From the UHGV virus genome UHGV-0171672: DNA of 31,138 nt; one strand, given 5' to 3'. Shown here in pieces: positions 4,124 to 16,843 of the stretch. The stretch's first letter is position 1; every line of letters starts with the position of its first letter. The notes under the pieces were generated by a model, which made no database searches, was not told the origin of the DNA, and was given only the letters and a program-made list of their open reading frames with translations. The stretch is from a virus. The translations under genes and the position numbers were made by a program.

Positions 4124-4354
4124 ATGAGAACAGCCGAATCACCCGGCAGAGAAATAACCGCCAGACCAGCTAACCATCATGCGCATATCAGCATGGCCGC
4201 AAGAAAAGCCGAGCGTGCACATATCTGCGAATTACTGCGCGAGCTGACTGAGACAGCGAAAGAGACACACACCTGTCCACAGGAAACCTGCGCAGCCATT
4301 GAACGACTGATTGCAATACTCGCCAACCCAGACGAACTGAAGGGGTGCGCATAA
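4124..4354 (+). CDS. Hypothetical protein
   Basis: ATG at 4124 with AGGAG 6 nt upstream; stop overlaps the exonuclease start (TAATG). Confidence 0.55.
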   Translation: MRTAESPGREITARPANHHAHISMAARKAERAHICELLRELTETAKETHTCPQETCAAIERLIAILANPDELKGCA

Positions 4355-4935
4355 TGAACCATCTCATGATTGACACCGAAACACTGGGTAACGGACCGGA
4401 CGCAGCCATATTCGCGATTGGGGCGGTGTTTTTCGACCCGTTCACCGGAAAGCTGGGCAAGCAGTTTGAGAAATTCATCGACCCGGTGGATTCAGAACGC
4501 AACGGCGGAACCGTCAATGCAGCCACCGCTGTATGGTGGGCCGGACAATCCGTGGAAGCCAGAGCCTGCCTGCGCAACGCAGATGGAACAGAGCTGGCAG
4601 CAGTGACCGAATTTCTGGCGTTCATTTCACGCAATATGCATGACGAAAGCCCGGGCAATTCACTGAACATATGGTGTAAGGGCGCATCCTTCGATTTCCC
4701 GATCCTGAAATCCGCCATAACACGCACAGCCGGAGAAAAAAGCATCCCCTGGTGCTACTGGAACGAGCGCTGTATGCGCCCGCTTATCGCCATGGCTGAA
4801 TCAACTGGATGGAAAATGCCAGGCAGATCAGGCAAAGAGACCATTGCTCACACCGCGCTGGGCGACGCCGTTTACCAGGCAAAGGTCGTGTCAGAAATCT
4901 GGCAGCGCTTCACAACACCATTCCTGAACATATGA
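4354..4935 (+). CDS. DEDDh-type 3'-5' exonuclease (DnaQ-like fold)
   Basis: N-terminal MIDTETLG motif and later H...GDA-like motif typical of DEDD exonucleases. Confidence 0.75.
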   Translation: MNHLMIDTETLGNGPDAAIFAIGAVFFDPFTGKLGKQFEKFIDPVDSERNGGTVNAATAVWWAGQSVEARACLRNADGTELAAVTEFLAFISRNMHDESPGNSLNIWCKGASFDFPILKSAITRTAGEKSIPWCYWNERCMRPLIAMAESTGWKMPGRSGKETIAHTALGDAVYQAKVVSEIWQRFTTPFLNI

Positions 4936-4944
4936 GGTGAAGCC

Positions 4945-5172
4945 ATGGTCGCCATCCTGAATGTGTGTTGCTGCCCCCCCCTGAACGTGGAAAGAAAAGC
5001 CCGCGCATCGCTGCGTTTATTCCGCGACGGCGTGCGGAATTTTTCACGCATAAAACCCCACGACTACCTGGTAATAAGAATCGGTTTTCGCTGGCGATTG
5101 CTGAGCAAAAACAACGGGGCGTCATGGGATTTATTAACGCACGAAACCTATAACAAAGAGGCCGCGTTATGA
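4945..5172 (+). CDS. Small hypothetical ORF containing a C8 homopolymer, coupled to dam
   Basis: Strong SD GAGGTGA before ATG 4945; ATGA overlap with dam start; C8 run at 4974-4981. Protein sequence is not obviously globular. Confidence 0.3.
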   Translation: MVAILNVCCCPPLNVERKARASLRLFRDGVRNFSRIKPHDYLVIRIGFRWRLLSKNNGASWDLLTHETYNKEAAL

Positions 5173-6113
5173 GCAAAGAACTGTTATCCGGCACGCCGCT
5201 TAAATGGGTGGGCGGAAAAAGTCGCATCATGAACACACTGAAGGCGCATCTGCCAGAAGCAGACTGCCTGGTTGAGCCGTTTGTGGGTGGCGCATCGGTA
5301 TTCATGAACACCAGTTACAAGCGTTACATCCTGGGTGATTCCAATGGTGCGCTGATTAATTTCTACCGGCAAGCCAGGGACAACACCGACAGCCTGATCG
5401 ACGAGGCGAAAACCCTGTTCCTGAACCACAACAACAGGGGTGACTATCTCATCATTCGCGAAACCTTTAACGCAGAGAATCATGCCTTCCTGAACAGCAG
5501 AACGGGAATAAGCGACCGCCGTGAACTGCGACTGGCCGCCATGTTTTTGTACCTGAACCGACACAGCTTTAACGGTTTGTTCCGCGTGAACGGAAAAGGC
5601 GATTTTAACGTGCCTTTCGGCTGCTACCGCAAGCCCTACTTCCCTGAGCGGGAAATCCGCGCATTTGCAGACAAGGCAAACAGCACCCGAACGCTGCTTA
5701 TCCACGCAGATTTTAAGGATACGCTGAACTCTGCCAGTCACCTGTTCGGCATGGGCAACACGCTTTGCGTGTACTGCGATCCCCCTTACCTGCGATTCAG
5801 TGGCCGGGACAATTTCACCGCCTACGGAAAACCATTCGATGAAGACGAGCACGTTCGTCTGAGGGCAGCGCTTGACCGCCTTTCACAGGAAACGGGCGGC
5901 ATGACCAGCATCACCATATCCAATTCCGACACACCGGAAACCAGACGCATTTATCAGGGTTACCGGATGAACGCCATCCAGGCACCACGAAGCGTTGGCG
6001 CAAGAACCCGGGAATCAGCACCGGAGGTTATCGCCACCCTGAGATGCATCACATCCGCCTTATCAACGGTTCGCACTTCTGCGCCACGAACATGGAAGAA
6101 GTACGCGTGCTGA
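5169..6113 (+). CDS. dam: DNA adenine methyltransferase (Dam-like N6-adenine MTase)
   Basis: KWVGGK AdoMet-binding motif near the N-terminus and catalytic DPPY motif. Confidence 0.9.
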   Translation: MSKELLSGTPLKWVGGKSRIMNTLKAHLPEADCLVEPFVGGASVFMNTSYKRYILGDSNGALINFYRQARDNTDSLIDEAKTLFLNHNNRGDYLIIRETFNAENHAFLNSRTGISDRRELRLAAMFLYLNRHSFNGLFRVNGKGDFNVPFGCYRKPYFPEREIRAFADKANSTRTLLIHADFKDTLNSASHLFGMGNTLCVYCDPPYLRFSGRDNFTAYGKPFDEDEHVRLRAALDRLSQETGGMTSITISNSDTPETRRIYQGYRMNAIQAPRSVGARTRESAPEVIATLRCITSALSTVRTSAPRTWKKYAC

Positions 6114-6141
6114 CAGCAACACGCAATACGGGAGGTAAAGC

Positions 6142-6492
6142 ATGGCAGTGATTTATATCGCCGGTCCCATGACCGGATGCAAAGACCACAACAGGACGGC
6201 ATTTTGCGTGGAGGACCTGAAACTTCGGTGCGCCGGAAACATCGTTCTTAATCCTGCCGTACTGCCTGACGGATTAAGCCAGCAGCAGTACATGAGTATT
6301 TGTATTCCGATGCCCATGTGTGCCGATGCCATTTACTTACTGGATGGATGGGAAGAGTCCGCTGGCGCACGGGCTGAGTACGCAATGGCGCTCAAACTGA
6401 ACATGCCAGTGTCATTCCCGGAAAACCGGGCAGCCGGCGAAACCGTCGCGCAGCTGCTTCACAAATCAAAAGCCGCACAGGCGACTGAGTAA
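6142..6492 (+). CDS. DUF4406-like protein (nucleoside 2-deoxyribosyltransferase-like fold)
   Basis: VIYIAGPMTG ... IVLNPAVLPDGLSQQQYM ... YLLDGWEESAGARAEY pattern matches DUF4406 as I remember it; SD GGAGGT. Confidence 0.7.
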   Translation: MAVIYIAGPMTGCKDHNRTAFCVEDLKLRCAGNIVLNPAVLPDGLSQQQYMSICIPMPMCADAIYLLDGWEESAGARAEYAMALKLNMPVSFPENRAAGETVAQLLHKSKAAQATE

Positions 6493-6930
6493 CCGACCGG
6501 AGATCGAAACATGATTGCGCGCAGAGCTACCAACCGTCTCACAGGCTTTATTCCAGGCAAGGTTGATCATGCACTCCATCACGGGGCTGTCACTTTCCTC
6601 AACAAAGGAGAGGCGCGCAATCATGCATTCCGGGGTGAGCACGTGGCGCTGGCTAATCAGTCTTTGATAGCTAAGCGCCTGCCATTCAGCCTTTTCAGCT
6701 CTGATAGAAAGAGAGGCAGCCATGACCTGCCACACCAGAAAGAGCACCACACTGGCGAAAACAAACGTTGCGCTGTCGCAAAAAATGAATGCGGCAACAA
6801 TCGCAAGGAAAGCGCTAATCCTCAGAACCAAGGAAGCGCGACGGTGGAGAAGGCTTGTCATGTGTTCAAGCCAGTAGCTGTACCACAGGTCAAAAAGAAT
6901 TTCGTAATCAGAAGGGAGCTTATCACTCAT
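6466..6930 (-). CDS. Hypothetical membrane protein, antisense orientation
   Basis: ATG at 6930 (MSDKLPSDYEILF...), two hydrophobic helices; the only plausible coding content in 6.5-7.3 kb. Confidence 0.35.
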   Translation of the reverse strand: MSDKLPSDYEILFDLWYSYWLEHMTSLLHRRASLVLRISAFLAIVAAFIFCDSATFVFASVVLFLVWQVMAASLSIRAEKAEWQALSYQRLISQRHVLTPECMIARLSFVEESDSPVMECMINLAWNKACETVGSSARNHVSISGRLLSRLCGF

Positions 6931-7188
6931 CAGAAACACCCCGCGTATGCAGACAATCACCAGTTGCCAGGTGATATTAATTCGCAACATTCTAACCACA
7001 TCAGCACGCAACACAAAAACCGCTTGCCAGCGCTCGTCGTGTCGGGTTACATTTCCGCTGCACCTCATAAAACGGGTGCCGGGATTTCCACCCCGCTGAC
7101 AAACGAAGCGCACAGCCGCGCCAGCGGTTTTTTTGTGCGTACTGTATCGCCACGTCTTTTTCGCGTCAGAATTATGGCGGGGCGTACA

Positions 7189-7313: not shown

Positions 7314-7535
7314 ATGGCAAACCGCAAGCAACAGCGCGCCCGCGCTGAGCGTCTTCACATCCGCAGCGAAATCAACCGCAGACTTTTCCGCGCAACACGC
7401 GTCGCGCAAATCATGCATATCAACATGCTGCATGAGCGCACGCACGCACTATCAAACCGTTACTGCGCTGCTGTCTTCAGCTATCTCGCCGAAGATCTGG
7501 CAGAACTGCAAAGCCTCATCAACCAGCACCGATAA
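7314..7535 (+). CDS. Hypothetical basic protein
   Basis: 73 aa, SD AAGAGG; preceded by a 19-bp near-palindrome at 7277-7295. Confidence 0.55.
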   Translation: MANRKQQRARAERLHIRSEINRRLFRATRVAQIMHINMLHERTHALSNRYCAAVFSYLAEDLAELQSLINQHR

Positions 7536-7603: not shown

Positions 7604-8020
7604 ATGAAGAGCGTTAAGGGACTTTCAGATATTCAGGACTTCTTTAACTGGATGTGGGCGGTGGATCCCCTGCTGGCTTCCCGCCTGAACAACTGGCACG
7701 ACTATTACCGCCGCGCCTGTAAACAGGCTGCCCGCAGCGTCACCACATACGGGGATTTCTCCTTCACCGTGGACGGTCGTTACCGCGTGGACGTGAAAGG
7801 TGACGGTGATGGCTTTGGTTTATTTCACATCAACGGCACCGACAGTACCGCCATCAGCTGGTCATCGTCAGAGATGGCACTGGTTCTGGAAATGACAACC
7901 CACAGCGTGGCCGTGAAAGGCATATACACCGCAGAAGACTTTATCGGTGAATACCAGCGCCTTCTCGTGCTGTACCGCGCGGCGTTTCAGGAGGTCACTG
8001 GCGGGGAGTACGACGCATGA
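7604..8020 (+). CDS. Hypothetical protein upstream of A
   Basis: 138 aa, SD GGAGG; ATGA overlap with A. Confidence 0.6.
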   Translation: MKSVKGLSDIQDFFNWMWAVDPLLASRLNNWHDYYRRACKQAARSVTTYGDFSFTVDGRYRVDVKGDGDGFGLFHINGTDSTAISWSSSEMALVLEMTTHSVAVKGIYTAEDFIGEYQRLLVLYRAAFQEVTGGEYDA

Positions 8021-10530
8021 GTGACCGCAATGCACAGCTGGCGTACCCGTGGAACGCACCGCTACCGGTTATCGATCCTGAAACGTTCGGCAGAGCACAA
8101 CCAACCGCATTACGCCAGGCCATTCAGAGCTACATCAACGAGGACATTCGCATTGATGCCAGACTGGATGAAGAAACCGTCTCCTTCCTGACAAACACAG
8201 ACGAAGGCAAGCGAATTAATTCGCATCTTCACCACGACGAAGAGCGTCGGGTCAGACTGGAAAAACTGGCGAAGCACAAACGCGAGAATCCGCCCACGGT
8301 GGTATCGGAAGCCATGGCAGAACTTCGCGCCCTGCCCTCGTTTCTTGGCAACGTGCTCATTCGTGATCTGGCGCGTTTAAACCGCAAACAACAAAGCGCC
8401 CGCAATGAAGGCGTGAAAAACAACAACACTCACGTGGCCGATAACTTCGTTCGCCGTGGACTGCGCACACGCCTGAAACGCATCGAACAGGTGAATGAAT
8501 GCTTCGCCACGACGGCATTCAAAGCCACCGCAGCGCGTCATCGCCTTGATGAATTACTCATGCTGCCACAACTCAACCGTGATCAAATTCAGCGCCTTGC
8601 CACACTAACGGCGGCGGCATTTTCCACCGAACTGGAACGCATATGTGATGAAGTTACTGAGCGGACAGGAAAAGGCGACGATAACCTGTTTACCTGGTTG
8701 CTGACTTACCAGCAGCTGGCGCGCATGGCAATAAAACTGGGCGTGAACCCACCATACTGGCCGTCACTCGAGATCAGACGTGACCGCCGCACGGCACCAG
8801 ACCCTGAACTGGTACCGGGTGCGGTAATGCGTATCACCTGCGCCACCTGGTGGAACAACCAGCTGCGCCACCTCGCTGATCTCTGGCGGGAGGAATTACT
8901 GCGTGCCGCCGGAAGAGTATCGCGCAAGGCATCCCCCTACATCAGCCATGAGTCACTCCAGGAATTCCGGGAGAAACGCCAGCGCACCCGTGATTTTCTC
9001 AAAAGCTGGGACATTGAAAACGAAGACGGTGAACGCTTGAGTCTGGAGGACGTGTACTGGTCAGGGCTGGGGAATCCGCGCAACCGCCGCAACGAGATGA
9101 TGGCCTGCGTCAGAGGGATGGAACAGGTCGCCGAATCGCGTGGTGACTCCGCGTTCTTCGTGACAGTAACCTGCCCTTCCCGCTTTCACAGCGTGAACGA
9201 GGACGGCAGCCTGAACCCGAAATACAACGGTGCCACCGTGCGCGATGCCAGTGATTATCTGGTTTACGACGTCTTTGCAGCTGCAAGAAAAAAACTCAAC
9301 AAAGAAGGCCTGAGCTGGTACGGGGTGCGCACCGTTGAGCCACACCATGACGGCACACCGCACTGGCACATGCTGGTATTCACCGCCCCGGACAATGAAG
9401 AACGCATCATTGAAATCATGCGTGACGCAGCAATCAAATCAGATCGCGCAGAACTGGGGAATGATATTTCTCCGCGCTTCAAGTGCGAAAAAATCGACCC
9501 GGCAAAAGGCACACCGGCAAGCTACATCGCAACCTATATTGGCAAGAACCTGGACGCCAGCACCTTTCACGACAATGACCCGAAAACCGGCAAACCTTAC
9601 GCCGATAAAGAATCGGGAAAAACCATGGCGGAAACCGTGGAAAACGCCATTGCCTGGGCGAGTCTCCACCGCATCCGGCAGTTCCAGTTCTTCGGTATCC
9701 CGCCCCGACAGGTATGGCGTGAACTCCGCCGCCTTGCCGGACAAATGGAGCGTAACCCCGCATCACCGAAGCGCCTGGACCATGACGACATTGACGCCAT
9801 TCTGGCCGCCGCTGACGTGGGGTGTTTTGCCACCTACATCAACCGTCAGGGCGGCGTGCTCATTCCACGCAACCTGTACCTGATCCGCACCGCATACGAA
9901 ACCGCAGATGAGGCCAACGACTACGGCGAATTCCCGCAGCGCATCTACGGAATTTGTGCCCCGTCGCTCGGCGAGCGCTACACCATCTGTACCCATCCGG
10001 ACGAATGGAAACTGGTCAGAAAAGAAGCGAAATCCGACAACAGCACGGACGAGGGTTTTGACGTTGGGGGCGGCTTCGCCGCACCTTGGACTCGTGGCAA
10101 TAACTGTCCCCATGATGAAAAAACAGACACCGGAGAGGGTAAAAACCCACCACCGGAAACCAGGAAAGAACAAAAACTGGTCGTCCCGGGAGGTGATTTG
10201 GGTGAGTGGTTAAGGTCACTGACCCCCACAAAGCGAAAACAACTCACCAGGCAGCTGAAAGATGCGCCATCTGACACAAAAACCGTGAAAACCGGCGGCC
10301 CCACCACGCCCGATGACGTCATACATGTGCGTACAGCATTGCCGCTGACTGACGTCACCACCACCGTAATCAAGTCGGCACTGAGCGCGACGGGCGAGGA
10401 GCTACACAGTGGCGCAGCACTTTCCGTACACAGAGGTGCACGCGTTCGCCTGCCTGACGGGCGGATTGTGCACTGGGATGAGAAATCACGAAGCCTGGTG
10501 GCAGCAGATCAACCGGAGGTGAACCCATGA
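8017..10530 (+). CDS. A: Rolling-circle replication initiation endonuclease (P2 gpA-like)
   Basis: HUH motif TPHWHMLVF and paired tyrosines YIATYIGK; 837 aa. Confidence 0.9.
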   Translation: MSDRNAQLAYPWNAPLPVIDPETFGRAQPTALRQAIQSYINEDIRIDARLDEETVSFLTNTDEGKRINSHLHHDEERRVRLEKLAKHKRENPPTVVSEAMAELRALPSFLGNVLIRDLARLNRKQQSARNEGVKNNNTHVADNFVRRGLRTRLKRIEQVNECFATTAFKATAARHRLDELLMLPQLNRDQIQRLATLTAAAFSTELERICDEVTERTGKGDDNLFTWLLTYQQLARMAIKLGVNPPYWPSLEIRRDRRTAPDPELVPGAVMRITCATWWNNQLRHLADLWREELLRAAGRVSRKASPYISHESLQEFREKRQRTRDFLKSWDIENEDGERLSLEDVYWSGLGNPRNRRNEMMACVRGMEQVAESRGDSAFFVTVTCPSRFHSVNEDGSLNPKYNGATVRDASDYLVYDVFAAARKKLNKEGLSWYGVRTVEPHHDGTPHWHMLVFTAPDNEERIIEIMRDAAIKSDRAELGNDISPRFKCEKIDPAKGTPASYIATYIGKNLDASTFHDNDPKTGKPYADKESGKTMAETVENAIAWASLHRIRQFQFFGIPPRQVWRELRRLAGQMERNPASPKRLDHDDIDAILAAADVGCFATYINRQGGVLIPRNLYLIRTAYETADEANDYGEFPQRIYGICAPSLGERYTICTHPDEWKLVRKEAKSDNSTDEGFDVGGGFAAPWTRGNNCPHDEKTDTGEGKNPPPETRKEQKLVVPGGDLGEWLRSLTPTKRKQLTRQLKDAPSDTKTVKTGGPTTPDDVIHVRTALPLTDVTTTVIKSALSATGEELHSGAALSVHRGARVRLPDGRIVHWDEKSRSLVAADQPEVNP

Positions 10531-10931
10531 CACGATTCCATTGTGTACTCCAGCACCATGATTTCAGCGCCATCATGAGTGGACGCATTCCGGCACTGAC
10601 GCTGAGCGGCGTCAGTGTTCGACCACAGCCAGGCGACGAACTGGAGATCACGATCGCAAACCCCGATCGCAGCACAGATACCGTCATGACCGACATCCTG
10701 ACTGCAAGAACCAACACCGACAGAAGCGCATTCATCGTTGCCGTGCGCCCTCGTCGCGCCATATCAGAGCCTGAACCACTGACTCCCGTAGGAAAAATCA
10801 TGCAGGCATACCACGAAAAACAGAACAGAAAACTCAACGAAGAACTGGCAAGAACGCTGGCCGTCGTTAACCGAAAAGCGGCAATTGTCAGCTATGTGCA
10901 TTCGGCCGCCAGCAGGCAATCACGCAGGTAA
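10527..10931 (+). CDS. Hypothetical protein
   Basis: ATGA overlap with A, SD GGAGGT. Confidence 0.6.
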   Translation: MTRFHCVLQHHDFSAIMSGRIPALTLSGVSVRPQPGDELEITIANPDRSTDTVMTDILTARTNTDRSAFIVAVRPRRAISEPEPLTPVGKIMQAYHEKQNRKLNEELARTLAVVNRKAAIVSYVHSAASRQSRR

Positions 10932-10979
10932 CAAAAGACCATGAACATGACCAGAAACAGCAAACCGAAGGAGCACACC

Positions 10980-11150
10980 ATGAACGACATCAGGAGGATC
11001 AGCGACAAAGAGCTTACGAAAATGATTGAGTCGGCGCAGCAGCTGCTTTCACGACGAAATCCGGTTGTGGAAGAAACATGGTGGGAAAATTTACTGGCAG
11101 CACTGACCGAACTCCGCGAACGCCGGAACAACGAAGGAGCCGCCAAATGA
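10980..11150 (+). CDS. Small hypothetical protein
   Basis: ATG at 10980 with GAAGGAG 6 nt upstream; in-frame ATG at 10941 lacks an SD. Confidence 0.45.
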   Translation: MNDIRRISDKELTKMIESAQQLLSRRNPVVEETWWENLLAALTELRERRNNEGAAK

Positions 11151-11485
11151 AGACACCCAGAATGACCGGAAAGGTAATCATTTTACGCTACCTGGAAACG
11201 CACGCACGCTTCAGCGCACCAGAGCTGGTTGAAAAACTGGGCGTGAAAAGGACCATCATTAATCAGGCCGCCGGAAAGATGGTACGCGAAGGGCTGCTGG
11301 TTGTGGACGGGTACACGGACAAGATAACGCATTACCGGAAGCCAACGGAAAAGGAACGACTGGAGCTGGCGCAACGGGCAGAATGGCAACAAGAGCCGTC
11401 CGTAATTGAAGCCTGCAAGCGCAGCGAAATCATGAAGAGAATTCTATTTATCTACGGCGCTGGCGAAGAGCTGCCAGTCATCTAA
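11147..11485 (+). CDS. Putative winged-helix DNA-binding protein
   Basis: ATGA overlap with the previous ORF, SD GAAGGAG; KVIILRYLETHARFSAPELVEKLGVKRTIINQAAGKMVREGLLVV looks like a wHTH. Confidence 0.55.
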   Translation: MKTPRMTGKVIILRYLETHARFSAPELVEKLGVKRTIINQAAGKMVREGLLVVDGYTDKITHYRKPTEKERLELAQRAEWQQEPSVIEACKRSEIMKRILFIYGAGEELPVI

Positions 11486-11517
11486 CCCCAACAATAAAAC
11501 CAACACGGGAGACAAAT

Positions 11518-11835
11518 ATGCCAACACAGGTTGCAACAGAGGGACGACTGGCAGCAGACCCGAACACAAGGAGAACAACCAAAGGAACCAACGTCACAAC
11601 GGCACAACTGGCGGTATCACTACCCTGCCATGGCGCAGAACAGCCAACCACAATGTGGCTTTACCTTATTTCATTCGGGAAGCAGCACGAAGAACTGGCA
11701 AAACACAGAAAAGGCGATCTGATTCTGGTGCACGGAAACTTGCAGGTAAACAGGTATCAGGACAAGTACGGGCAACAGAAAGAGGGCTGGCAGTTGCTGG
11801 CGCAAAGCATTATCAGCTCAAGAACCGGGCGATGA
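11518..11835 (+). CDS. SSB-like OB-fold protein, truncated (no acidic C-tail)
   Basis: GRLAADPNTRRTTKGTNVTTAQLAV ... WLYLISFGKQHEELAKHRKGDLILVHGNLQVNRYQDKYG parallels the E. coli SSB OB-fold core. Confidence 0.6.
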   Translation: MPTQVATEGRLAADPNTRRTTKGTNVTTAQLAVSLPCHGAEQPTTMWLYLISFGKQHEELAKHRKGDLILVHGNLQVNRYQDKYGQQKEGWQLLAQSIISSRTGR

Positions 11836-11845
11836 CTTCACGCAT

Positions 11846-11886
11846 GTTACCCTTAGCAGCGAGGGTAACACAGGATTTCTTTTTTC
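11846..11886 (+). terminator. Rho-independent terminator ending the rightward early operon
   Basis: GTTACCC-N10-GGGTAAC stem followed by ACAGGATTTCTTTTTTC. Confidence 0.6.
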
Positions 11887-12592
11887 AGTCAAACCGAAAT
11901 CGGCCGCTTGTCGCGTATGCATAGGTGACCACCGCACCCAGCGCATTCACACGCTTCTTCACATAAATCACATTACCATCCTGATAGTCACCGTATGGGT
12001 AGCAAATAAAGATTGTTTTTTGCAAATCAGGATCATCAACAAATGCCCCTGAACAACTTTTTGAGCTACCGCGACTGTACTCATAGGGAGCGGAATAGAA
12101 TGAATCTTCACCCGGAAGAAAATATATCAGCGTAACCAGGAGGGTAAACAGAATCATCCAGGTAAGAAGGCACATACCCGAAAAAAACTTAAGATACGAT
12201 GTAACCCCGGTAAATTTAGACCGATCAACCAGGTTCTTTTTCAACAGGCACAGTGAGACAAAAACCGAAAGCACCACAGACACTGAAACAAGGCAGTTTG
12301 TCGTGAACGAATAAAGGTAGGTAATTCTGTAAACATCGTTTCGCCACCAAATAAAAAGAAAAATCCCCCCCAAAACAGAAAGCGTGACAAAAGTTAAATA
12401 AGGATATGAGTAATTTTTCACAGTTCTCACCCGGCAGTCTCCCACTGACTCAGACAGATGAATATCATCACCACCTGCCACAAAAAATCGCAAGATCAAA
12501 ACTACACAAAAGCGCACGAAATTGCACAATTTTTCTAATGTACTTTTTCCCCATTCCGCCCGGTAACGGCGCTGGCTGAGGCCGGTTTGCAC
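11885..12592 (-). CDS. Multi-TM membrane protein (cargo island, module 2); start uncertain
   Basis: At least three hydrophobic helices plus a ~80-aa C-terminal soluble region. The first ~25 codons of the track ORF overlap promoter-like repeat copy A, so a downstream GTG (12421 or 12430, after GGGTGAG) is the more likely start. Confidence 0.5.
   Translation of the reverse strand: MQTGLSQRRYRAEWGKSTLEKLCNFVRFCVVLILRFFVAGGDDIHLSESVGDCRVRTVKNYSYPYLTFVTLSVLGGIFLFIWWRNDVYRITYLYSFTTNCLVSVSVVLSVFVSLCLLKKNLVDRSKFTGVTSYLKFFSGMCLLTWMILFTLLVTLIYFLPGEDSFYSAPYEYSRGSSKSCSGAFVDDPDLQKTIFICYPYGDYQDGNVIYVKKRVNALGAVVTYAYATSGRFRFD
12511..12576. repeat. Promoter-like direct repeat, copy A
   Basis: agcgcacgaaattgcacaatttttctaatgtactttttcccc... 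aligns at ~75% identity (hand alignment) with 15438-15501. Confidence 0.5.
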
Positions 12593-12759
12593 GGTGCACG
12601 AAAAACGAGGCGAGTAGTGGATGAGTAAAAATTAATAATAAGTATAAGCAATGTCGATAAACCAAGACACAACAAGTATTCAACACAATTAATCATGCAC
12701 GTGCAAATAGCAATAACATTAACACATTATTTATATAAAAACAATCTGATATTATTTCG

Positions 12760-12790
12760 GTTGTGGGCTTGGTATTTTCAAACCCACAAC
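12760..12790 (-). terminator. Perfect 8-bp stem hairpin downstream of the three-gene module (non-canonical terminator candidate)
   Basis: GTTGTGGG-N15-CCCACAAC, 35 nt past the stop of the 263-aa gene in an AT-rich spacer; no clean U-tract. Confidence 0.25.
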
Positions 12791-12824
12791 AATAATATTA
12801 TTTCGAGATATTAAACATAGACAA

Positions 12825-13616
12825 TCACCCTATTTTTCTATGCATTTTCATGAGTTCCCTTATTAAGCTAGCATGAAAGATTGATACATCAGAAATCCTT
12901 GTATCAATAGATGAATCAATATTATCAGAAACCTTTTGCTCAAATAAATCGCAGATACCATCAAGTGACTCAATATCTTTTTCCAACTTAGAAAAACCCT
13001 TAAATAGATATAATGAATCCCTTAACTCCCCAAGCTTTGAAAATAGTTGGCTATCTAGTAATGATATAAATTCATCAGAGGGAAGCCCCATCGCATCCTT
13101 AAAATCTTCCGTAACTTCAAAAGCTAATCCATTAATTTTAGGGAGAATAACTTCTCGTAACCAATACCCTTCGTTTATAGCTTCATTTCTTCCTTTATAA
13201 TGCTGCCACAAAGGAACCCCTACAGATGCAATTAGCGCAATAATTGAAATTGCTATAGAGTACCATTCAGGTCCTGATTCAGGAACTCTAACGATATTAT
13301 AGAGATTCCCCGATGAGGTTGAGGGGTAATATCCATTCAGAACATAATTATCAGGTTTATCATAAAGAAGGTGCGGTGTAAACTTCCTTTCATAACTATT
13401 GCATAATTTTAGATCGCTATTTTTTCCAATGCATATATCAGCATTAAAAATGTTTCCACTCTTTGGTTCTATTACGTGAGACTCTGAATTTTGCGAATCC
13501 ATGTTAGACGCGGTTCTTTCTAGATATGTCGCAGAGCAAGCGGATATATTAACAAAAAAAATGACAGGCAATGCTGTCATTTTAAAAACAGAACACAAAT
13601 CAGAAGAACGGAACAT
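12825..13616 (-). CDS. Lipoprotein-like membrane protein with internal TM helix (cargo island)
   Basis: N-terminus MFRSSDLCSVFKMTALPVIFFVNISAC has a lipobox-like ISAC; internal helix WYSIAISIIALIASVGVPLW; 17-nt overlap with the upstream gene. Confidence 0.6.
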   Translation of the reverse strand: MFRSSDLCSVFKMTALPVIFFVNISACSATYLERTASNMDSQNSESHVIEPKSGNIFNADICIGKNSDLKLCNSYERKFTPHLLYDKPDNYVLNGYYPSTSSGNLYNIVRVPESGPEWYSIAISIIALIASVGVPLWQHYKGRNEAINEGYWLREVILPKINGLAFEVTEDFKDAMGLPSDEFISLLDSQLFSKLGELRDSLYLFKGFSKLEKDIESLDGICDLFEQKVSDNIDSSIDTRISDVSIFHASLIRELMKMHRKIG

Positions 13617-13944
13617 TTCGATGTAATCCTCTTCTCACAGCCCTATCCAGCTCAGAAAGCATTCCTTCTTTATAATTCACTCCATCTAAAGATGTTCTGC
13701 TATAAAATTCATTCGGAGATGAAAAAAGAGGCAATATATTCTCTAGCATACCCAAAAAGTATGAGCTTGACACAACCACACCATTCGGAATTGATAGAAA
13801 AATCCTATCATTGTTATCAAAAGTAAAGCGATCTATGCCAAAGAAACTATATGCCTTGCGACCATTATCACGCCCAGCAAATAATTTCTTGCCGCCATCT
13901 TTAACTAATTTATTGAAATCTATATAAATATTTGCCATTTTCAT
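13600..13944 (-). CDS. Small STAS-like (DUF4325-like) protein, partner of the GHKL ATPase
   Basis: 114 aa; segment IFLSIPNGVVVSSSYFLGMLENIL resembles the SSSF-type motif of DUF4325/STAS proteins; SD GAGGAA; 11 nt after the ATPase stop. Confidence 0.55.
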   Translation of the reverse strand: MKMANIYIDFNKLVKDGGKKLFAGRDNGRKAYSFFGIDRFTFDNNDRIFLSIPNGVVVSSSYFLGMLENILPLFSSPNEFYSRTSLDGVNYKEGMLSELDRAVRRGLHRNVPFF

Positions 13945-13955
13945 TTACCTATTCC

Positions 13956-15332
13956 TCAGGTTCTTTGAGTTGCATTTTCCGGTAAAGGAAAACGTATATT
14001 AATCATAACTCCCGGAAAACGGGCTTTCTGCATACACTTAAGATAGGTACGATCTGGTTCAGATTCAAGCCCTGTATTATTAAATGGATAAGTGAATTTG
14101 TCACTTTGGTTATCTAACGTTTGCTTTTTCAACTTATAAGAACCATCAAAGTTTATATGTGTGCATCCAGAAATTAAAGACATTCTGATGTTTCCACTTA
14201 GTTCTTTGGATAGTTCTTTTAAACTATCATGCATATCCTGGAAAAACTTCAATAGCTCAATGGTTCCCGTACCAGAACTATCTGTCTCCGTTTCATTTTT
14301 ACAACTAACCCGCCCCTGCAAAGCAGCGACTGTAATCAAACCTTCTCTAAACATCCCTTTTTTATTTATGTGTTTTTCCACATAAGGGATTATGTGATTG
14401 TTATATGAATAATGTTCTAAAGAAAGTCCTGAAAAAGTTTCATCAATAGTTTTTCCAAAGTTAAAAACAGCTATTTCACATGTTGGCTGTTTTAAGCCAT
14501 TATTTACAAACCCCCTCAAATACCAACGCGGACGCTGCTCAAGCCCACAATGTCTCTCTGCATTATCAAGTAATTCGCCCATGCAAGATGTTAGATGGTT
14601 TTCTGCCTTGCTAACTAATTTTAATTGATGATCACTTAGACACTCGTTTATATAATTAGTGAATTTCTCAGACATTCTATTTTTGGTATCTTGTGCAAAT
14701 GCAGACGCATTTTCCTTGCCGATACTATCAGCAGAGAATATTCTTTTCTTAGGGTTATCTTTTTTCGATTTTTCTGTTTCATCATGCACCTTCCCTGGCG
14801 TCACTTTATTTATTTCTTTAACCAACCCGATGTCACGAATAATTTCTAAATATTTTTCATCCTTCGGATAAATGCCATTAAGTTGTACTTGAGCATCTTT
14901 TAAATTTATATTGTGACGTTTGGCTGAGCTCAGTGCAACACCAAGGAGACATTCCGCACCTAAACAATGCTTTTTATTTTTAGTATAATCAAGCAAATAT
15001 GATTTACGTTTACCCCTGGCAATCAATCTAGTTACACCATGAATAAACAAAAGAGATTTTTCTGGATGATCAAACAAATCGAAATATTTAGGTATTATTA
15101 TTCTATCTTCTTTGCGACGAAGAGTTGCAGTATCATATTTCTTTACGGATGAAATACTTTCAATAAAAGTAGCCACCTGACTTTTCACTGGTGTTACTTC
15201 GTCAGAAAAATGTAACCTTTCATAGGCTTTATATTTAATTCTTCTTTTATTTTTTCTCTCAACGCCTTTTAAAAAGCGAATCCAACCACGTAAAAAGCGT
15301 TTTCTTGCATCCTTTTTATCTATTTTTTTCAC
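13956..15332 (-). CDS. GHKL-type (histidine-kinase-like) ATPase with basic N-terminal domain
   Basis: N-box ELLDNAERH (encoded around 14551-14577) and Gly-rich DSSGTGTIELL; GTG start at 15332 after AAGGTGA; K/R-rich ~240-aa N-terminal region. Confidence 0.7.
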   Translation of the reverse strand: MKKIDKKDARKRFLRGWIRFLKGVERKNKRRIKYKAYERLHFSDEVTPVKSQVATFIESISSVKKYDTATLRRKEDRIIIPKYFDLFDHPEKSLLFIHGVTRLIARGKRKSYLLDYTKNKKHCLGAECLLGVALSSAKRHNINLKDAQVQLNGIYPKDEKYLEIIRDIGLVKEINKVTPGKVHDETEKSKKDNPKKRIFSADSIGKENASAFAQDTKNRMSEKFTNYINECLSDHQLKLVSKAENHLTSCMGELLDNAERHCGLEQRPRWYLRGFVNNGLKQPTCEIAVFNFGKTIDETFSGLSLEHYSYNNHIIPYVEKHINKKGMFREGLITVAALQGRVSCKNETETDSSGTGTIELLKFFQDMHDSLKELSKELSGNIRMSLISGCTHINFDGSYKLKKQTLDNQSDKFTYPFNNTGLESEPDRTYLKCMQKARFPGVMINIRFPLPENATQRT

Positions 15333-15799: not shown

Positions 15800-16843
15800 T
15801 CAGCTGGCACCATCCTGAAGCAGCGAATAGGGATTAAAGCGCATCACTTCAACCCCAAGCCATTCATTGACATGCTTCATCGCTTCCATGACCGGTTGCA
15901 ACTCGTTGATGAAAAATACCCTCGCCGCCTTCTCAACGTCACCGAACGCCGCGTTCCCGTCAGGCATTGCCCCCATCAGCTGAGGCGGTACACGGTGAGC
16001 CGCAAGGATATCGTCGCGGGTACCCCCCTTGATGTTAAGGAATTCGTCCTTCGCGGTGATTTGCTGGAACGGCAGTATTTGCACACCATCCTTGCCGCCA
16101 CCTGGCGCGTGCAGAAGGATATTGCGGAACGCCCCCTTGCCACGGGATTCCGTGAGTGTTTTCTTGATGGCTTCCACGCTTTCAGCGTTTGCCTGGGCGG
16201 CACCAACATAGACAATGCACCCGGCATGTGAACCGTTGTCATAGTAGAGCTTGCGGAACGTATCCGCTGAGTTCGACAGACTCACCGACAGCAACCCACC
16301 GATATACTCCGGCATCCCGTAGATTTCCTGGTTGATATCGGGGTTCAGAACGTGGCACACAGCCCCCTTACGGAAAGCAAATTCAGAACCATCATCATTG
16401 AGGTACCAGTACGTATCGAGATCACTGCCCCGCCGCGTGTATTTCGCCAGCGCAGGACGAAGCGCAATGGGTTCACCGAACTTGTTGCGGCGGACTTCAA
16501 GATAGGCATTACCGAACACGAACCAGTCCAGCGCAAACGCGGAAAACGCCTGGCGGGACAGTAGCGGATGAGGAACAAAGCAGCCGTTCAGGGCATTACG
16601 CTTAAAATACAGGGCCGACTGGTGCCATGATGCACGACGCGAGGCGCGAGCAATGGCATTCCAGTCCATGGGGGTGTCATAGTAGCGGCCATTATCGGCG
16701 CACGACATGTTATCAAGCAGATCAAGACGGCTTGCTTCATAAGGACCGTCAAACGTGAAAGCACTGAGTGACGGCGCTGATTTCAGTGCATCAGCCAGTG
16801 AGCCCGTGCCGCGCTTTCCGGTGTATTTTTTACGTTTACTCAT
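15800..16843 (-). CDS. Q: Portal protein (P2 gpQ-like)
   Basis: 347 aa at the P2 Q position; sequence recognisable as P2-family portal; 5-nt gap after P. Confidence 0.9.
   Translation of the reverse strand: MSKRKKYTGKRGTGSLADALKSAPSLSAFTFDGPYEASRLDLLDNMSCADNGRYYDTPMDWNAIARASRRASWHQSALYFKRNALNGCFVPHPLLSRQAFSAFALDWFVFGNAYLEVRRNKFGEPIALRPALAKYTRRGSDLDTYWYLNDDGSEFAFRKGAVCHVLNPDINQEIYGMPEYIGGLLSVSLSNSADTFRKLYYDNGSHAGCIVYVGAAQANAESVEAIKKTLTESRGKGAFRNILLHAPGGGKDGVQILPFQQITAKDEFLNIKGGTRDDILAAHRVPPQLMGAMPDGNAAFGDVEKAARVFFINELQPVMEAMKHVNEWLGVEVMRFNPYSLLQDGAS

Follow-up and report, generated by a model that had tools for sequence, protein, structure and literature searches.

[quoted passage not shown] What, then, is such a gene doing in a P2-like prophage, and why does its product stop at 105 amino acids, without the tail through which E. 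coli SSB recruits its partners? The gene (ssb, below) lies in UHGV virus genome UHGV-0171672, a stretch of 31,138 nucleotides that was analysed as a whole and is called the window here. The window is a P2-like (Peduoviridae) prophage of E. coli, the relevant features of which are collected in Table 1. When the region 10500-12000 (megablast) and the SSB protein (tblastn) were compared with 50,697 phage records, no match was found at E <= 1e-5; the 105-aa SSB family is therefore absent from cultured phages, and the prophage belongs to an uncultured P2-like lineage, all known members of which are prophages. Its replication initiator, gpA, is 837 aa long and about 52% identical to those of the nearest cultured phages (P88-like / Xuanwuvirus, Citrobacter phage Shae_phiSM).

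Table 1. Features of the window that bear on the ssb gene (position 1 is the first letter of the window)
Feature	Position	Strand	Evidence and remarks
Integrase and C-type repressor	left end of window
Cox-like regulator	early region
Rv2179c-like 3'-5' exonuclease, D12-class Dam methylase, DUF4406	4345-6492	+	E 2.5e-51 (exonuclease), E 1.1e-51 (methylase); accessory DNA-metabolism genes
215-aa ORF	6466..7113	-
Terminator-like site	7114-7137		bidirectional hairpin with T-run
73-aa ORF, 'derepression protein'-like	7314..7535		so annotated in sister loci; heads gpA unit
orf138	between 7314..7535 ORF and gpA
gpA rolling-circle replication initiator	8017..10530	+	Pfam Phage_GPA E 1.9e-108; phrog_91
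orf134 (134 aa)	10527..10931	+	small, conserved; phrog_14984 / phrog_14672 (with orf69)
orf69 (69 aa)	10941..11150	+	small, conserved; phrog_14984 / phrog_14672 (with orf134)
Winged-helix MarR_2 / 'Ren-like' gene	11147..11485	+	phrog_142 'Ren-like exclusion protein' E 1.3e-28
Shine-Dalgarno-like GGGAG	11507..11511	+	6 nt before ssb ATG, read from sequence
ssb-like CDS (105 aa and TGA stop)	11518..11835	+	ORF list, Pfam, PHROG, AlphaFold2 model
Hairpin (10-bp, 11845-11870), then T-rich run (11876-11885)	11845..11885	+	RNA fold -13.7 kcal/mol, z -3.2 vs shuffles; likely terminator
Variable cargo: four low-GC ORFs (235, 263, 114, 458 aa)	11885..15332	-	GC 0.32-0.44
Portal gene	15800..16843		right of cargo; then terminase, scaffold and capsid genes of P2 type

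The protein belongs to the SSB family and consists of an OB domain. A sequence-only reading of the window had described the 105-aa ORF as matching the OB-fold core of SSBs without their Gly-rich linker and acidic tail, and had named a search with family HMMs as one way to check it. The ORF is as described, and the search is significant: Pfam PF00436 scores 52.3 bits where the cut-off is 26 (E 6.6e-14; protein 4-97, profile 3-100 of 104), and PHROG 44, 'single strand DNA binding protein', matches at E 8.5e-24. The NCBIfam matches are all SSB models save one weak 'hypothetical protein' (E 0.0023), and the score against one of them, TIGR00621, is 48.8, under its trusted cut-off of 53.95. A phmmer search of the PDB returns SSBs only, that of Thermus/Deinococcus at 1e-9 and that of E. 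coli at about 1e-4.

The fold agrees. An AlphaFold model made from the single sequence was unusable (pLDDT 49.5) and was replaced by an AlphaFold2 model built on an alignment of 89 homologues (pLDDT 94.1, pTM 0.83), which comprises a complete OB domain with the topology b1-b1'-b2-b3-alpha-b4-b5. When this model is compared with the PDB by Foldseek, the top 50 matches are all SSB chains, with TM values of 0.69-0.83; the best are S. aureus SsbB and SsbA (0.80-0.83), B. subtilis SsbA and E. coli SSB (1eyg, 0.76). The model matches predicted phage SSBs as well. S. aureus SsbB, taken singly, is about 33% identical in sequence, with a TM of 0.82-0.83. Alignment with the OB core of E. coli SSB (29% identity) places W47, F53 and Y80 opposite W54, F60 and W88, so that three of the four aromatic residues that stack in the E. 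coli protein are kept. The position of the fourth, W40, falls within a four-residue deletion of loop L23, and it is because this loop is shortened that an equivalent aromatic is missing. Like the isolated OB domain of E. coli SSB (pI 9.05), the protein is basic (pI 9.7). We infer that it would bind ssDNA, and likewise its oligomeric state.

Where the two proteins part company is at the C-terminus. E. coli SSB continues through a linker to the DDDIPF tip, the hub to which its partners are recruited, whereas the 105-aa protein ends, ...SIISSRTGR, at the end of b5. It has no acidic residue in its last 15 positions, and both the Gly/Pro-rich disordered linker and the DDDIPF-like acidic tip are absent, as the sequence-only reading had it. 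No remnant of tail-coding DNA is found 3' of the ssb stop; a hairpin with a T-run begins within 10 nt of it and, within 50 nt, there is also a convergent gene, which ends at 11885. A tail supplied by read-through or frameshifting was considered and rejected: reading through the TGA adds only about six codons, and no downstream frame gives an acidic tip.

Has the tail been lost, or was it never there? An exhaustive HMMER search of 1.84 billion representatives yielded 2414 relatives at E <= 0.001. Only one cluster, the protein's own, is found at E <= 1e-30; the next relatives are 38-54% identical and longer, at 127-179 aa. Most of these run on, from a homologous 'SARTVRPGGG', through a basic linker rich in Gly to a tip of the form F-DD-x-[IL]-P-F (...PPFDDDIPF in P0156, ...NDDLPF in P0012 and ...FDDAIPF in P0017, for example). 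A neighbour-joining tree built from the OB core, weakly resolved and indicative only, nests the 105-aa clade among relatives most of which have the tip. Since the relatives are mostly tailed, the tail of the 105-aa SSB was lost secondarily, and 'truncated', the word used in the sequence-only reading, is apt in this evolutionary sense.

Nor is the 105-aa clade alone in this. Other tail-less relatives (P0173, P0176, P0189, P0194 and P0196; 112-117 aa) end right after 'RPGGGRRR', and tail loss is recurrent within this clade of mobile-element SSBs. The gene of one short, tail-less relative overlaps a Toprim primase gene. Tailed relatives occupy similar positions: in a Klebsiella prophage, that of Klebsiella oxytoca (P0158, 150 aa) comes directly after a Zn-ribbon/Toprim/DUF927 primase, and that of Edwardsiella hoshinae (P0156, 139 aa) directly follows a D5_N/Pox_D5 primase-helicase in integrase-AlpA satellites, beside variable DNA. 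Because replication initiators stand beside tailed and tail-less relatives alike, association with a replication module is a property of the clade as a whole. These two SSBs from mobile elements of Proteobacteria are the closest in sequence (45-54% identity), and they share with ours the place directly 3' of the element's initiator or primase and beside variable DNA. They differ in keeping a linker of 35-60 residues—and, in the case of P0156 and most others, a DDDIPF-type tip—and in having primase-helicases (D5_N/Pox_D5, Toprim/DUF927) for neighbours, instead of gpA. A pattern scan of GTDB representative genomes found no relative; among cultured phages, P0010, a tailed one, matches only phage SSBs at no more than 34% identity. 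Predicted phage proteins commonly include short SSBs, of 107-130 aa.

In the prophage, gpA, orf134, orf69, the MarR-like gene and ssb follow one another on one strand, overlapping or with very short spacers, and the synteny of orf134 and orf69 is kept in sister prophages. The MarR-like gene, whose match to Pfam MarR_2 is weak (E 2.9e-5, under cut-off), lies upstream of ssb in every locus that has ssb, and occurs without it in two sister prophages (L019 and L020). Its stop codon is separated from ssb by 32 nt. Alignment with homologues begins at residue 1 of the ssb product, and the start codon is therefore right. No sigma-70-like promoter was found on the + strand between 10400 and 11518, and SOS control was set aside, as no LexA box (CTGT-N8-ACAG) turned up anywhere in the window. 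The hairpin that follows ssb, which borders on the stop of the convergent 235-aa ORF, likely terminates the rightward unit; a simple terminator scan missed it because its T-run begins 6 nt past the stem. The sequence-only reading had made ssb the last gene of the early operon. It is indeed the last co-directional gene after gpA and, to judge from this arrangement, is probably co-transcribed with gpA, in a unit that it closes. The unit, however, probably starts near 7314, and not at a Cox-proximal early promoter, since the minus-strand 215-aa ORF and the terminator-like site next to it break the series of rightward genes.

Beyond ssb, the loci differ. Fifteen related loci are co-linear from gpA through orf134, orf69 and the MarR-like gene to ssb, and homology then breaks, either in the last two or three codons of ssb or just past its stop or hairpin. 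The break leaves ssb with three different C-terminal endings (TGR, TAI and TAR) and with different hairpins downstream. In the window, GC content falls from 0.51-0.53 over ssb and the genes preceding it to 0.32-0.36 in the cargo, and the placing of ssb at the boundary of a cargo island, another claim of the sequence-only reading, is confirmed. The GC content of ssb, 0.51, and its A/T skew match those of the preceding backbone genes. What follows ssb in sister loci is variously a 235-aa or a 178-aa membrane-like protein, a TumE-family toxin-antitoxin pair with an HVO_A0114 protein, or a DUF4760 protein. Overall, ssb adjoins at least four different cargos and has no fixed partner among them. That ssb might belong to a neighbouring cargo system was considered and set aside, because these cargos, at least four, are unrelated to one another and that of the window belongs to no known family.

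That the protein is truncated at the recombination junction suggests that an ancestral exchange of cargo cost it its tail. The 3' end of a tailed ssb was, on this comparison, probably replaced during cargo exchange at the hotspot, and selection would then have kept the short form. If so, ssb shows how cargo swapping in the P2 hotspot can reshape the last gene of the backbone.

Two observations on this region may be added. The four cargo ORFs of the window gave no match to Pfam or PADLOC at E <= 0.01, and three of them, the 263/114/458-aa trio, are present in none of the sister prophages examined; they are a candidate for an uncharacterised system in the P2 tin/old hotspot. And the AT skew on the coding strand, with A in excess of T, stands at 0.35-0.42 between 10700 and 11900—over orf69, the MarR-like gene and ssb—and is gone in the cargo.

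What might an SSB without a tail be for? On balance, and by analogy, we favour the view that it is an accessory coat for rolling-circle ssDNA, one that would not dock the partners of host SSB. During lytic replication the protein would oligomerise as other SSBs do and, while gpA and Rep drive the rolling circle, would coat the displaced strand by way of the aromatic surface formed by W47, F53 and Y80. This coat would supplement a limited pool of host SSB and protect the ssDNA beneath it, which would be shielded, and not passed to the repair and recombination enzymes of the host. The established partners of E. coli SSB include chi of Pol III, PriA, RecQ, RecJ, RecO, ExoI and RecG; a protein with no SSB-Ct tip would, we propose, dock no such partners.

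There is precedent for such a protein. SsbB of B. subtilis, 113 aa and without a tail, protects incoming ssDNA and does not interact with RecO (PMC3384303), and the OB-only SSBs of Anabaena bind ssDNA (PMC3976300). Like ours, B. subtilis SsbB is a natural OB-only SSB of nearly the same length with no acidic tail, and the likeness might extend to binding and protecting ssDNA without recruiting RecO and other such proteins. The two are not orthologous, however: ours is phage-borne and sits in a rolling-circle module, SsbB belongs to the competence regulon instead, and their tails were lost independently.

Between replication and interference, the two roles that the sequence-only reading had offered, genomic context leans toward the former, as a non-essential accessory of replication or of ssDNA protection, since the relatives stand beside replication initiators, the composition of ssb is like that of the backbone, and no promoter of its own was found. 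Counted against a replication-accessory role are the dispensability of the gene, its disrupted alleles and its rarity, all described below, as well as the loss of W40 and the shortfall against TIGR00621. For lagging-strand priming, moreover, a tail-less SSB might be a hindrance and not a help.

The gene is rare, being present in only 27 of 5426 complete E. coli genomes. It is missing from three sister prophages (L019, L020 and L021) that share the gpA-orf134-orf69(-MarR) block: in the first, the MarR-like gene is followed by ogr and then the portal gene; in the second, about 35 nt stand in place of ssb and some 160 bp; and in the third, the MarR-like gene is missing along with ssb. The gene is a dispensable accessory of one E. 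coli P2-like prophage lineage.

Dispensability, and presence or absence among prophages that are otherwise co-linear, are also what might be expected of a gene for interference or counter-defence. Its product would compete for ssDNA with the SSB of the host or with foreign SSBs, or mix into their oligomers, and so stop co-infecting phages and satellites from replicating or recombining, or else would hide phage ssDNA from those host defences that work by way of SSB or ssDNA. We think this possible but unlikely. In function, the gene would then be a cousin of P2 Tin, found in the same gpA-gpQ interval. Tin reportedly poisons gp32, the SSB of phage T4, so that it, too, concerns an SSB. Like Tin, Old and other cargo between gpA and gpQ (Rousset et al. 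2022, PMC9122126), ssb lies in the interval between gpA and portal that those authors regard as the P2 defence hotspot, and varies in presence among related prophages. The exact protein, WP_016232588, is given as 'SSB' in Table S5 of gpA-gpQ loci of that study, the main text of which gives no sign of its having been tested. The neighbour upstream of ssb matches the PHROG named 'Ren-like exclusion protein', and phage SSBs are known triggers of Retron-Eco8 (PMC13402713), which makes variant SSBs relevant to defence.

Several things speak against interference, nevertheless. When compared with known defence families (PADLOC), ssb gave no match. In composition, strand and spacing it belongs to the backbone string of replication genes and not to the low-GC cargo, and it is conserved while the adjoining cargo changes, with none of which it is regularly paired. 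With no promoter of its own detected, expression in the lysogen, which exclusion by a prophage would need, is not expected. Its relatives are embedded in replication modules. And identity to the host SSB is so low, at 29%, that mixed tetramers are unlikely.

A 'mute' SSB, one that calls in none of the host's SSB interactome, might also insulate the rolling-circle ssDNA of the phage from host nucleases, helicases and immune systems that sense SSB or ssDNA, or else, as a counterpart of P2 Tin based on an SSB and sited at its locus, poison the replication of competing phages and satellites. This we regard as doubtful. If it were true, recurrent and stable loss of the tail would mark a general strategy of mobile elements.

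Is the gene, perhaps, doing nothing at all? It might be a decaying relic: a tailed ssb that lost its 3' end at a cargo swap, leaving behind a functionless OB reading frame, young or hitch-hiking with gpA. The truncation point does coincide with the recombination boundary of the hotspot, the gene is rare and lacking from sister prophages, and several alleles have been disrupted independently. One has an amber codon at position 87 (strain SW070917; L001 13277-13279). Another has a 1.26-kb IS3-family insertion after nt 75 (L006 3878-5143) that encodes an orfA of 100 aa and an rve transposase of 272 aa. A third, found in two loci (L016 5972-6229, and L007), has an in-frame deletion of 20 residues between GRLA and ARLA repeats. 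It was the amber allele that first hinted at decay.

Most alleles are intact, however, including those in 13 of the 15 annotated E. coli loci examined. The intact alleles form three groups (~95-100%, 81% and 75% identity), and all of them, down to 75% identity, stop at the same place, codon 106. The Nei-Gojobori dN/dS of ssb is put at 0.15-0.33 across alleles that differ by dS of up to ~0.35; comparisons inside the main group give 0.11-0.23, and those from group to group 0.29-0.35. For gpA in the same pairs of loci it is similar, at 0.17-0.30. Comparisons with one further locus (L018) give 0.5-0.6, from only 8-12 substitutions each, of which several fall at the recombinant 3' end. The tail-less form is, by these measures, stable and under purifying selection, which contradicts a functionless relic, and other stable subclades of the mobile-element clade have lost the tail as well. 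We consider the relic quite improbable, and rejected a recent pseudogene on the grounds that most alleles are intact and the gene is under selection.

Highly improbable, finally, is a PriB-like adaptor specific for the initiator—an OB dimer that, with gpA, Rep or the host primosome, would load the displaced strand with helicase or primase instead of coating ssDNA in general—for while the protein resembles E. coli PriB (104 aa) in length, in its SSB-derived OB fold and in having no C-terminal tail, and is tightly linked to replication initiators here and in related elements, its nearest relatives are mostly ordinary tailed SSBs, and PriB identity was rejected for lack of sequence similarity, there being no BLASTP alignment with E. 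coli PriB at E <= 100, no PriB model among the NCBIfam matches at E <= 1, and no PriB chain among the PDB sequence matches or the top 50 fold matches.

A gene of this sort leaves current knowledge unchallenged. PGAP already labels the protein 'single-stranded DNA-binding protein' in RefSeq, and the annotation is not new; tail-less SSBs are a known kind, and the gene is ordinary in kind. The accessory SSB of the window, which comes from a rare and uncultured P2-like lineage, is in short annotated correctly. Our searches of the literature brought up no work on the protein, and none on SSBs in P2-like phages. If it does bind ssDNA without a tail, it would be the natural equivalent, on a temperate phage, of the SSB-deltaC constructs made in the laboratory, and a convenient system in which to find out what mobile elements gain from covering ssDNA without recruiting anything to it.

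One group of relatives ends in a manner of its own. The members of a 128-aa subclade (P0037, P0181, P0182, P0188 and P0195) have no DDxIPF tip and share, instead, the C-terminus ...[EK]Q[ER]xLW[EQT]S (...LWES), which may be a different motif for docking partners. The gene of one member (L029 6001-6387) overlaps that of a RepA_C initiator, beside ParA and RHH genes.
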